From positions 221,526,001 to 221,590,000 of the forward strand of contig OZ024741.1 in NCBI GenBank assembly GCA_964016885.1: a stretch of DNA of 64,000 bases, in the 5' to 3' direction. A program made the position numbers and the translations under genes. This document shows, one piece after another, positions 235-61,337 of this stretch. The stretch is from Eledone cirrhosa (lineage: Eukaryota). The notes below the pieces were generated by a model. It was given only the letters and a program-made list of their open reading frames with translations. It did not search any database and was not told the DNA's origin. Each line of letters starts with the position of its first letter. The first letter of the stretch is position 1.

Positions 235-416
235 GTGGTAAGGAACCAGGTGGACCATAACGCACCAAAGTACTCAATACTTAGGGTAGTAGAGTGGGTA
301 ATAGGAACAAGTAAGACCCCGACGGCTGAGCTCAAGCCGTTTCAACGGCTAATTCAGTCCAGAATTAGCCGTCGAAACGGCTTGAGCTCAGCCGTCGGGG
401 TCTTACTTGTTCCTAT
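235..416 (-). mobile_element. Fold-back element, family A (tail 235-300; inverted arms ~301-355 and ~362-416), PLE pLTR-like
   Basis: Near-perfect inverted repeat ataggaacaagtaagacccc.../...ggggtcttacttgttcctat between TA tracts; related copies at 8357, 12205, 19411 and 34554. Confidence 0.75.
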
Positions 417-725
417 ATATATATATATATATATATATATATATATATATATATATATATATATATATATATATATATATATATATATATATATATACAC
501 ACATATATATAAAATAATAATAATGAAATATTGTGTAAAGTGTTCAGGTGCACTACAACTCATCAAAAAGTGTATGTATAGTACATAGGGTAATGTACAA
601 ACGTCAGGAAAATGAACAGTGCATGAGTCATGATACACACATGTGTGCATGTGTATGGAAGGGGTACATCAGATGTAGTTTTGGCGTATTTCGGGAAGCA
701 TGAGTGTCTTAAAGGATGCAGTGTC

Positions 726-2075
726 TCAGCAGCTAACAACTGACGCAGGCAGTTTGTTCCATGCTTCAGCAACTCTGAGTGTGAAAAAATGTTTACGAAA
801 GTCATGGGAGCTGTGCTGTTTTCTGATTTTGTAGGCATGTCCACGTGTGTTAGACACATGAAGATCAAAAAGGTGCTCAGAGTTGTTGTTGGCGAGATGG
901 TTAATAACTTTGTGGGTATTCACCAAGTCCATTGCCAGACGTCGGAGCTTCAATGAATCCATGCCCAGGGAAGCAAGGCGTTCAGAGTATGGTAGGTGTC
1001 TGATGGAGGGTATGCGCTTGGTTGTACATCTCTGAACAGTTTCCAGGAGGTCAATGTTCTGAGCAAGATAGGGGTTCCAGATAGATGATGTGAATTCCAA
1101 GTGTGGTCGTACCATAGCTGTATACAGTTTTAAATAGATGGCTGGAGAGCGGCTAACAAAGGTCTTGCTGAGTGATACCAAGACACCCTCGGCCTTCTTG
1201 ACAATCTTAGAGAGATGCTTTGTCCAACGCAAATCGCTGCTGACAGTAATGCCCAGGTCACATTCACAAGAGGACTTCTTGATATCGGTGTTGTGGAGGG
1301 AGTATGTGGACGCTGGATTTTTCCTCCCAAAATGCATGGTGGTACACTTGTCCACAGCCAGCTTCAGTTGCCAGTCTGTGATCCATTGCTGCATTGTGTC
1401 CAGGTCTGATTGTAGGAAAGAGTTGTAGATTTCGGGATCAGTCCTTTTGATTTCAAGGTACAGCTTGATGTCATCTGCATATTTCAGTACCGTGGTATTC
1501 TGTAAGTTGGCATCTATGTCATTAATATATGCCACAAACAAAAGGGGACCAAGAACAGATCCCTGTGGTACACTAGATGACATCTCATATGGTGAAGAAT
1601 GCTGTCCTAGAACCGTGACTACCTCTTTTCGGCTGAGAATGAAGGATTTCAACCAGTCGAAAAGATCATCCTTCACACCCATTGCAGAGAGTTTTGCCAT
1701 AAGTCTTTTGTGTGGCACAGAATTAAAAGCCTTAACAAAGTCAAGGTAAACAACATCCACCCATGAGCCGCTGTCAGTGATCCGAGTGATCTCTTCAAGG
1801 AACTCGATAAGCTGATCACAGCAGCTGGAGTTAGGGATAAATCCAAACTGTGAGGGCTGGATGAGGCTGTGAGAGCTCCAGAAGTTCCAAAGTGTTTCTC
1901 TGACACAGGATTCCATCAGTTTGGCCATACAGCTAGTACGACTGACTGGACGATAGTTGACAAGTGACATGCGGTTGCCCTTTTTGAACAGGGGAATGAC
2001 ACTGGCAGTTTTCCACTGCTCCGGAGTAGCATCATTGTTGAGACAGTATTGAAAGAAGAAAGAAAGCTGGCGCAA
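726..2075 (-). pseudogene. LINE ORF2 reverse transcriptase segment
   Basis: 449-aa ORF with QFGF, YLDF.KAF, QGSVLGP and YADD; separated from the upstream ORF2 part by stops/frameshifts. Confidence 0.92.
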
Positions 2076-2513
2076 AAGGAAATACCCACCATGTTTGAGA
2101 AGCAGGTATATAACACCATCAAGACCAGGGGAGGCATAGTTGCGCTTATTCTTAAGGTGACGTCACAACATTGCAGGTGTAAATTCCATAGTTGTTATGG
2201 AATTTGATGTTAGAGATGGTGGAGATGGTACATTCTGGTTTTCAACAGTAAAAATACTTGGATAGCACTCAGCAATGAGTTCTGTGCATTCTTTGGGATC
2301 GTCAGTGATCTGGCTTGTGTGGGGATTGTGAAGAGGACCAACTGGAGAGTGAGATCTCTGCTTTGAATGAACATATTTCCAGAACACCTTACTGTCAGGA
2401 TTGGTTGCTATGCACTGTTCAAATTCAAGCACTGCCTTCTTTGTCACTTGCTTGAGATGGTTAGAAGATTTATTCCGCTTTTTTCTGTTGGCATCTGATT
2501 TATGCAGTTTATA

Positions 2514-58500: not shown

Positions 58501-59432
58501 TAATATGTTTGGTTGTGTCTTTATATATTTGACTGTGTCTTGATATGGTTGGTTGGGTCTTAATATGTTTGGTTGGGTCTTAATATGGTTGGCTCGTTCT
58601 TAATATGTATGGGTCTTAATATGGTTGGCTAGTTCTTAATATGGTTGACTGCTCTTAACATGGTTGGTTGGGTCTTAACATGGTTGGGTCTTAATATGGT
58701 TGAGTGGGTCTTAATATGGTTGGTTGGGTCTTAAAATGTTTGGTTGGGTCTTAATATGGTTGACCTGGTCTTAATATGGTTGGCTGGGTCTTCATATGTT
58801 TGGGTCTTAATATGGTTGACTTGGTCTTAATATGGTTGACTGTGTCTTTATATGGTTGGTTGGTTCTTTATATAGTTGGTTGCGTCTTCATATTGTTCAC
58901 CAGGGCCTAATATGGTTGGCTGGGTCTTAATATGGTTGGTTGCATCTTAATATGGTTGAGTAGTTCTTAATATGTTTGACTAGGTCTTAATATGGTTGGG
59001 TCTTAATATGGTTGGTTGAGTCTTAATATGGTTGCCTGGGTCTTAATATGGTTGACTGTGTCGTAATATGGTTGACTGGGTCTTAATATGGTTGACTAGG
59101 TCTTAATATGGTTGGGTGGGTCTTAATATGGTTGGGTCTTAATATGGTTGGTTGAGTCTTAATATGGTTGCCTTGGTCTTAATATGGTTGACTGGGTCTT
59201 AATCTGGTTGGTTGGGTCTTAATATGTTTGGTTGGGTCTTAATATATTTGACTGTGTCTTAATATGGTTGGTTGGGTCTTAATATGTTTGGTTGTGTCTT
59301 TATATATTTGACTGTGTCTTGATATGGTTGGTTGGGTCTTAATATGTTTGGTTGGGTCTTAATATCTTTGGCTGAGTCTTAATATGGTTGACTCGGTCTT
59401 TATATGGATTGTTGGGTCTATATTTGGTTGGC
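49515..59432. repeat. ~10-kb 20-bp (with 16-bp variant) satellite
   Basis: ggtcttaatatggttgactg repeated roughly 500 times. Confidence 0.97.
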
Positions 59433-60764
59433 TGTTGTTTGTTGTTTATTTATTATTTGTTGTTTAACCCTATGTAGGTTTGCAACTGGTAGATAGTATC
59501 AGCAATAGAAAAGACCAACAGAAATATTTTTCTTTGGTTCAATTTGATGAGTTAAACCCCACTCGGTAAGTGAAGGGGGTCTGAAATCTTGCTGATGAAT
59601 TCCCCTTAGTTTTAACTGAGCAGAGATATGATCAAAGACATTCCAGATGTGATTACACCACCTATATTCTTTGTGCAAGTAATCTCTGTTCTTTTCTAAA
59701 ACAGAACATGCTTTGAGGGAGTCTTCACTGCTATTTCTCACACGTCAAGCACCCACATTGATAATTTTCCTTAATTGCTATATTGTTTTCACAGACTACT
59801 GAAAATTTTTAGAGACAGTTGTATAGTTTTCTTAATTCTTAAATGATTTTAGAAGTAACTGTATAATTTTGAAAATTGTTCTACAATTTTAGAAATAGTT
59901 TTAGAATCTTTTTATATGGTGGTACAAATGGTTGTATAATTTTTTGTATTGTTAAATAATTTTATAAGTGGCTATAAAATTTTAGAAATGGTTGAATAAA
60001 TGTTTATATAGTTAAATAATTTTAGAGACAGTTGTAAATTCTTTAAATAGTTAAATATTTTTAGAAGTAACTATATAATTGTAAAATGGTTGTAAATATT
60101 TTTATATGGTTAAATAGTTTTAGAATTAACTATATAATTTTAGAAGATATGATCAATGAACTGGCAGTTATGAATTCAAGTCTTAAAATAACAACCCATG
60201 TTGCTGACATTTAGTTTTTTAACCAAGGACAAGGTACATAACTCTGCATACCTCAGTCTGCCTGATTAACAGAATTGCTTCTTTCATTCCTTTAGTGTTG
60301 AAGGGACAGCAGTAAGAAGAGCATATATGTGTGTATATATATATATATATATATATATATATATATATATATATATATGTATATATATATATATATATAT
60401 ATATATATATATATATATATATATATATATATATATATATATACACACACACACACACACATATATATATATATATATATATGTATATATATACATTTAA
60501 TGTTGGTGGATCACTACTGGATAGAACTGGTCATTCCATAGTTAATCATCATGTATCATATAAAAAGCACTCAACGTTATGCATCTCATCCATCATTGAT
60601 GTTGAATCCTGTTGGTGGTGCAGGAAAACAATATATATATATATATATATATATATATATATATATATATATATATATATATATATATTTAATATAGCTA
60701 GGGAATGTAATGTCCAGTTACTGTAGGTTCCCTTGAGTGAGCACTCGATGTGTAGTTTCCACCT

Positions 60765-61192
60765 GGTATACAGGTGTAGAAGTAAGCAGAGTGGAACTGG
60801 AGAGAAATGAGGCAAGCATGCTCCGTTGGATGTGCAATGTCAAAGTGCGTGAACGACGCAGCATGAATGTGTCGAGAGAGAAACTGTGTCTGAGAAGGAT
60901 AGAATGTAGTGTGCAAGAGAGGAGACTGAGGTGGTATGGACATGTGATGCGCATGGAGGATAACCGATGGGTGAAGAAGTGCCAGGAAATGCCAGTTGAA
61001 GAAAGATGTGGTAGAGGTAGACCACGAAAAACATGGGCGGAGGTGGTGAGAACAGACCTCAGATCGCTGAAGCTCACGGTGGAGATGACAAAGGACCGTG
61101 ACAAGTGGAGAGATGCTGTGCTGAATAGGACCCGTCCCACCCTTGCAAGCAGGGAAAAGCGGACATAAAATAATGATGATGATGATGATGAT
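60765..61192 (+). mobile_element. RTE LINE 3' fragment
   Basis: LERNEASMLRWMC...RRLRWYGHVMRM...GRGRPRKTW; (GAT)n tail. Confidence 0.88.
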
Positions 61193-61337
61193 AGACATAT
61201 TACAATCATTTCTCTGGTGACCAGCTCGAGGTACGATCGATGAGATGATCGAACCTGATATTATACTCTGCTCTGTAAGAGCATCGAATGCTCAAACGCG
61301 ATACTGCATATGGATGCTTTAAGCATCCCACACCAAA
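61192..61337 (+). mobile_element. Family B remnant (partial inverted arm + tail)
   Basis: agacatattacaatc...gaacctga joined to the tail ...gcatcccacaccaa. Confidence 0.65.

Follow-up and report, generated by a model that had tools for sequence, protein, structure and literature searches.

The 64,000-nt stretch of the Eledone cirrhosa genome analyzed here (contig OZ024741.1, positions 221,526,001 to 221,590,000; hereafter the window) contains a population of short hairpin-plus-tail elements and one coding Penelope-like element (PLE). The 3.0-Gb host assembly was searched genome-wide for their relatives. An element is present at each of the 16 positions listed in an initial annotation of the window. 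When the repeat-masked window was compared with itself by BLAST, we observed local palindromes with E values ranging from 6e-10 (family G) to 1e-177 (family C). The hairpin-plus-tail elements are real, with palindromes far above chance level. Judged from their sequences, they are short end pieces of protein-coding PLEs and not a separate non-autonomous or retrozyme class. They are listed here with the coding element; the +1 wall is an arm-length limit at the presumed transcription start, discussed below.

228-413, minus strand: fold-back of family A (Hydra PLE), with its arms at 304-413 and its tail at 228-303; of the hammerhead it has just the 3′ half.
8356-8551, plus strand: family A fold-back; both arms reach the +1 wall (58/60 nt), with one base at the joint.
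12205-12360, minus strand: divergent A subfamily; tail and arm, with a short inverted piece.
19405-19603, plus strand: divergent A/G-like fold-back.
34554-34614, minus strand: lone tail-less family A arm of 58 nt, ending at the +1 wall.
10604-11019, minus strand: fold-back of family B (Hydra PLE) with arms of 155/167 nt and an 80-nt tail.
18135-18247, minus strand: family B inversion lacking overlap, made of the end of a tail (31 nt) and a 72-nt inverted arm.
18745-19144, minus strand: family B fold-back with a short tail and an inserted spacer.
61192-61337, plus strand: family B remnant, no hairpin; 67-nt inverted piece and tail.
23750-24200, plus strand: fold-back of family C (Hydra PLE) with arms of 181/177 nt and a 94-nt tail; in both arms the hammerhead core has a C3U change.
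24225-25406, minus strand: long family C fold-back; arms 526 nt.
41118-41543, minus strand: divergent family C fold-back with a CUGAUGA hammerhead.
23325-23686, minus strand: fold-back of family D (Neptune/Nematis-like PLE) with arms of 236/86 nt; stem II of the hammerhead is present along with its 3′ half.
29383-29686, plus strand: family E (Neptune PLE) fold-back; arms 129/106 nt; a U3-A8 hammerhead in each arm.
34640-34842, minus strand: family F (Neptune PLE) fold-back; arms 92/92 nt; ends before the family's hammerhead-like core.
29741-29907, plus strand: fold-back of family G (Hydra PLE, kin of A) with arms of 38/33 nt.
20303-23166, plus strand: family H, the coding Hydra PLE of the window, 5′-truncated; inverted arm 20303-20608, 3′ repeat and tail to 23166.

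The layout of inverted arm, arm and tail that had been ascribed to these elements is complete in 12 of the 16 (at 235, 8357, 19411, 10606, 18745, 23752, 24229, 41121, 23325, 29385, 34641 and 29748), and the remaining four are partial. The unit at 34554 is a single arm, that at 12205 retains ~17 nt of inverted piece, and those at 18136 and 61192 comprise an inverted piece and a tail without complementary overlap. Unpaired tails had been given as 40-90 nt and measure 39-94 nt; the tail at 18745 is only ~22 nt. The families had been described as at least seven unrelated ones, but A and G are kin, sharing the hammerhead 3′ half and tail motifs, with G the older relative. The coding PLE, placed originally at 20303-23160, does have the same ends as the hairpins. 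It is truncated at its 5′ side, and its broken open reading frame (ORF) for reverse transcriptase and endonuclease (RT-EN, ~20607-21955) is split over three frames. Further PLE stubs were found in the window, namely a family F copy (3801-3976) and a C tail (35000-35089), as well as a 17-nt A arm end adjoining a 40-nt C tail end (19915-19990) and decayed Hydra-type RT-EN remnants on the minus strand (15752-16643).

The suggestion that these are ultra-short PLE insertions is supported, as every family can be tied to a PLE ORF, all eight when H is included. Family A continues into the ORF at loci L123-L126 and L233, and its full ORF is of Hydra type, with the motifs RWR, DKT, YRDDG, CxCX5C, CxxC and CxH. 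The link for B is a single ORF-bearing locus (L204), whose 3′ untranslated region (UTR) is common with L207 from the ORF end on. Family C is linked at L122, with an ORF start following the C tail at L232, and G is linked by the ORF start only, lying after the G tail at L318/L325. The links for D are at L321 and L322, while E and F are linked at 11 of 30 and 3 of 30 loci, respectively. Tails without (TA)n behind them run into the ORF leader, and the tail leads to the ORF start at L124, L127, L090, L232 and L318. Candidate links of D to L229 (an adjacent insertion) and of F to L212 (a chimeric join) were dropped, as was a Pol III/SINE head for B, the sequence belonging to a 1.8-kb 3′ UTR.

Families A, B, C, G and H fall in the Hydra clade, an assignment made by comparing motifs by eye, rather than with a tree, with the supplementary alignment of PMC8557442. 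They have no CCHH motif; endonuclease motifs are seen in B, C and H, and the N-terminal and RT part in G. Families E and F carry the CX4CXXC linker and the CCHH GIY-YIG domain of the Neptune clade (L364 and L365 for E; L398 and L371 for F). Family D has a YVDD RT, a CCHH endonuclease and an altered linker, C-X4-C-X6-CC, that departs from the CX2-5CxxC pattern of Neptune; we class it as Neptune/Nematis-like, its exact clade being ambiguous by linker. A homologue search with D returned three proteins at 24-25% identity. In Pfam the Hydra ORFs had no match, their family not being modelled there, and the GIY-YIG match of D was weak (E 0.0017).

The elements are abundant. In 60 stretches of 10 kb picked by position (600 kb) the eight families account for 48 insertions and 17 fold-back pairs, or ~80 insertions and ~28 fold-backs per Mb. 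Extrapolated to the genome this corresponds to ~240,000 insertions (Poisson ~180,000-320,000) and ~85,000 fold-backs. Genome searches with each tail or arm took the best 40 scored copies of 415-1,737 candidates, and give lower bounds. The proposed targeting of (TA)n holds, with 284 of 345 tail ends and 244 of 293 arm ends abutting (TA)n compared with 7% of random positions; G tails abut (CT)n more often. Target-site duplications are obscured by the (TA)n flanks. We also noted further (TA)n fold-back families beyond the eight (L136, L226, L234, L253 and L257), several with a CTC...GAG(T/C)AC tail motif, and a set of seven near-identical F contexts (L370-L399, contig C12, 17.03-17.49 Mb) spaced at multiples of ~60 kb, which is a large segmental tandem repeat.

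The joint between the arms is informative as to how the hairpins are built. There are 160 distinct joints among 169 arm pairs, and the hairpins look rebuilt anew at each insertion. The joints comprise 62 that are flush or overlapping, 56 with 1-15 inserted bases and 51 with more. In 119 close joints the inverted arm is the longer in 28 and the tail arm in 23, with 68 similar. A further 21 inversions (~15 of them clean, and including 18135-18247 in the window) join a tail-only piece to an inverted arm with no complementary overlap. The two arms of one element differ at 3.7% of 14,394 sites, compared with 8.2% between elements, and rare variants are common to the two arms 23 times more than in shuffled pairs. 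It is thus likely that a single source RNA species gave rise to both arms. The sharing is no higher in hairpins with short spacers, so gene conversion between the arms is not favored as its origin.

By its geometry, each arm can be read as first-strand cDNA whose synthesis was primed by the adjoining flank. Every family has two fixed 3′ ends, one at the arm and one at the tail, each at TAT/ATA microhomology with the target. Tail-less direct copies, some of them bearing the ORF, stop at the same arm end, which indicates that the arm end is a start point and not a second-strand stop. Taken together, the distinct joints, the occurrence of either arm as the longer and the inversions without overlap favor priming from both DNA ends.

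Self-priming has been proposed for PLE palindromes (PMC3846280). A single cDNA would fold back and be copied, and asymmetry would result from later deletions. The rare variants common to both arms are in keeping with this, as is the overlap by at least 3 nt in 30 of the 62 flush or overlapping joints, where 7% would be expected, many of these lying at short palindromes. However, six of the 30 overlaps are one identical A joint that was selected by the query and could also be taken for a flush joint at the +1 base. Moreover, the longer inverted arms, the inversions lacking complementary overlap and the tail-less copies that mark the arm end as a start point all speak against a folded-back cDNA, and we consider self-priming unlikely. 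The joint geometry is a better fit to both-strand extension, as described for an anole PLE in vitro (PMC11167929), where both strands were cleaved and extended and two internal RT starts bounded the tail.

A hairpin motif, RCTC...GAGYRC, follows the arm end in families A, B, C, G and H, against a background of 0.4% that overstates the significance, the pattern having been derived from these sequences and A and G being kin. It follows the tail end in four of the five continuations examined, and was not found after the arm end of D, E or F. A similar motif closes the record preceding Hydra-1_Obim in the supplement of PMC8557442. We regard it as a candidate binding signal for the Hydra RT.

At the other end of the arms we find a wall. 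Arm lengths accumulate below a family-specific limit of 58 nt for A, 75 for H, 94 for F, 141 for E and ~185 for C. Within the 15 nt above it, the arms that were not search hits number 0/101 in A, 0/22 in E, 0/61 in H and 1/67 in C. For A, contigs from four public runs (one study, possibly from the source sample) have loose ends and a step in summed depth, which is not a copy number, at the wall base. This base, which in family A is equivalent to window position 8415, is an A after two pyrimidines. Such a context resembles the initiator consensus, and an initiator-like motif covers 7-14% of positions. A non-reference G precedes the +1 A in 13 of 30 arms ending at the wall, compared with 25 of 203 elsewhere (Fisher p 1.3e-4, one A-preceded row having been entered twice). 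An extra G is expected where RT copies a cap, as in L1 and other retrocopies. The arms of A, E, F and H ending at the wall are likely to be run-off copies of a capped mRNA leader. Penelope has an internal promoter within its pseudo-long terminal repeat (pLTR; PMC2377424).

We consider it probable that the hairpins are PLE end pieces made anew at each insertion, by two-ended priming in cut (TA)n and head-to-head joining. The GIY-YIG endonuclease would cut both target strands, and a single RNA species would be primed by both DNA ends, at its tail end by one and at its arm end by the other. The start signal would be present also at the 5′ end of the mRNA, just ahead of the ORF, and most copies would be short for this reason, running just 55-190 nt to the capped transcription start and then stopping. 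The two same-sense cDNA ends would be joined by end-joining, with microhomology or filler bases, while priming on the 3′ copy of the signal would generate the rarer long copies that bear the ORF. Hammerhead cleavage would play no role in placing these ends. A more specific form of this is a PLE ‘strong-stop’ product, in which the internal RT start is also used in the 5′ leader with run-off at the cap, and two cDNAs from one cut, their start points marked by the duplicated RCTC...GAGYRC hairpin, are joined head to head. We would give this form an even chance of being right. If true, it would explain the formation of inverted pLTRs and tails, and hundreds of thousands of insertions would record the transcription start of each family.

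A number of observations weigh against two-ended priming with run-off. Inserted letters are present in 107 of the 169 joints, and exceed 15 nt in 51, some being later insertions or mapping error. Later central deletions of a palindrome could mimic both asymmetric joints and those without overlap, and six identical A joints recur, though these were query-selected. The transcription start and the cap are themselves inferred from sequence. The +1 bases were chosen post hoc; automatic wall finding gave the same result in A, E, F and H and not in B, C, D and G, where the mapping reference and subfamilies interfere (B and C) or sampling is thin (D and G). In H, 24 of 61 arms extend past the wall. 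Several walls also look like 3′ splice sites (YAG); splicing at the wall is not favored, as the joints contain no common upstream exon.

Alternatively, some short copies might themselves be transcribed, acting as SINE-like non-autonomous masters mobilized in trans by the PLE protein. Short copies vastly outnumber those bearing an ORF, begin at the presumed start site and retain the tail, and the rare variants found in both arms imply many source loci, all in keeping with such masters. Yet in the seven families compared (5-28 long copies per family) no fixed difference sets short copies apart from long ones, and the mean short-long distance does not exceed the short-short distance in five of the seven. 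In E (0.076 vs 0.071) and in F (0.046 vs 0.035) the excess is modest, and the long copies are a small sample. The joints are also not inherited. We think masters of this kind slightly less likely still than self-priming.

The reading of the elements as non-LTR retrozymes or miniature inverted-repeat transposable elements (MITEs), fixed small elements with their own replication unit, accords with short, ORF-less, hammerhead-bearing inverted repeats, but is highly improbable and is refuted for the eight families by their ORF links and variable joints: we find unequal ends, a one-sided tail, variable arm lengths and no tandem hammerhead units. The reading as non-autonomous retrozyme-like elements in the initial annotation is not supported, there being no head-to-tail arrays (short same-strand neighbors occur in 7 cases among 638 arms, none an array), copy-specific joints and no separate lineage of short copies. 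A fold-back DNA transposon or MITE was likewise rejected, as it should have a fixed length and terminal inverted repeats (TIRs) at both ends, whereas here the tail is one-sided and 160 of 169 joints are distinct. A candidate true non-LTR retrozyme was seen elsewhere in the assembly (L233:8435-9700), comprising tandem 311-nt units, each with a CUGAUGA...GAAAC hammerhead core, beside an inverted unit.

Hammerhead ribozymes are part of many of these PLE ends. Complete type I hammerheads are found in B, C, E and H. The family cores are CUGAGGA (B), CUGAUGA (C), CUGAAGA or CUGAGGA (G), UUGAUAA (A), UUGAAAA (E), UUGACAA (F), CAGAAGA (H; at 20372, minus strand, in the window) and CAGUUGA (D). Thus CUGANGA hammerheads, ascribed earlier to B, C and E, stand for B and for C as a family, though both arms at 23752 carry the C3U change, while E has a U3-A8 core. 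The 3′ half noted in A and D is present, the A copy at 228-413 having this half only and the D copy also stem II. In F, stem I was looked for and not found. A strict descriptor matched two complete hammerheads in the window, both in the B copy at 10604-11019, one in each arm (cores at 10819 minus and 10876 plus); shuffled sequences gave 1 match in 40. An Rfam scan of the window gave no hammerhead among the matches listed (150 of 336), and chance miRNA-type matches only. In the C fold (37 sequences) 94% of cells are paired, with 35 double-change cells compared with 13.7 in shuffles, counts that are inflated by sequence kinship; the double changes are confined to three pairs, no more than in shuffles.

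The description of the elements as self-cleaving applies as sequence potential, and the window copies of A, D, F and G are missing some or all of the ribozyme. Short copies of A, F and G lack its 5′ half because the presumed start lies within the ribozyme or downstream of it. Most complete hammerheads have a palindromic helix III of 1-3 bp, a type reported to require dimers (PMC4209133). Ribozyme cleavage was rejected as the origin of the 5′ ends, as only 13 of 571 arms end at the predicted cut compared with 149 of 571 in the +1 window. In family F (L329 and L371), CTGATCTCAG lies directly before the hammerhead-like core and resembles a branch point and 3′ splice site. A comparable splice-site-like sequence has reportedly been seen in D. 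virilis Penelope, where splicing is said to rebuild helix I.

Other repeats in the window include a long interspersed element (LINE; 726-3515, minus strand) whose AP endonuclease and RT occupy two open frames (Pfam matches Exo_endo_phos and RVT_1), RTE-like LINE fragments (8914-10555 and 60737-61171), and an abundant SINE-like family (4879-5904, 11335-11727 and 27949-28557). At 12883-13784, TIRs of 104 nt (97%) flank a short transposase-like frame with no match in Pfam, the whole resembling a deleted mariner. Tandem arrays lie at 44314-47319 (58 nt), 49520-59407 (20), 62037-63997 (31), 7186-7966 (42) and 36903-37737 (30).

The inverted arm, one-sided tail, (TA)n targeting, hammerheads, U3-A8 core and clades are published PLE traits. 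What is added is mechanistic, in that all families are connected to three PLE clades, two-ended priming gains evidence, and run-off at the start site is put forward as a testable model. Thousands of natural end products favor priming from both ends, and they point to copies that run off at the 5′ end of the mRNA. In the literature searched, which was mainly open and took in few subscription papers or older PLE reviews, we found no paper deriving PLE hairpins from two-ended priming and start-site run-off, and none on these elements in cephalopods. At ~28 per Mb the fold-backs are a candidate source of long double-stranded RNA, in an animal group known for heavy A-to-I editing. In genome annotation such hairpins should be filed as PLE ends, and not as MITEs or miRNA hairpins. 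The origin of the inverted terminal repeats and tails of PLEs is named as an open question in PMC8557442.

Our Hydra families share with the published clade, including Hydra-1_Obim (PMC8557442), the motifs RWR/RWK, DKT, YRDDG, CxCX5C, CxxC and CxH in the ORFs of A, B, C, G and H, together with (TA)n targeting and a hammerhead in the terminal repeat. By eye they differ from the protein and hammerhead of Hydra-1_Obim in the supplement, with differing cores that include U3-A8 (A) and an A4 variant (H). E and F match the Neptune clade in linker and CCHH GIY-YIG domain, whereas D combines YVDD and CCHH with a changed Cys linker. Non-LTR retrozymes (bioRxiv 10.64898/2026.07.22.740005; PMC7229834) are likewise PLE-derived and ORF-less, with a type I hammerhead, but are head-to-tail tandem units with a complete ribozyme in each, whereas the window elements are head-to-head and their ribozyme is often incomplete.

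The minimal PLE hammerheads (Cervera and De la Pena 2014, PMC4209133) are also of type I, with a palindromic helix III and U3-A8 covariation, and that work had already published U3-A8 cores and opposite-strand pairs, 100-700 bp apart, from truncated PLEs, as found here. What differs here is the position of the presumed transcription start in A, F and G, which lies within the ribozyme or downstream of it. The insertion unit of endonuclease-bearing (EN+) PLEs (Craig et al. 2021, PMC8557442; Arkhipova et al. 2013, PMC3846280) has the same inverted 5′-truncated copy and one-sided tail, with palindromic or microhomology joints and microsatellite targets. Here, in contrast, the halves are mostly 55-190 nt, the tails are 39-94 and not 30-40 nt, and there are ~80 copies per Mb. 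Lastly, inverted hairpins or run-off at the mRNA 5′ end are not derived in the accessible text on Poseidon PAc in vitro (Frangieh et al. 2024, PMC11167929). That system likewise has a tail bounded by two internal RT starts, cleavage and extension of both strands, and an AT-rich target, and its hammerhead is dispensable.

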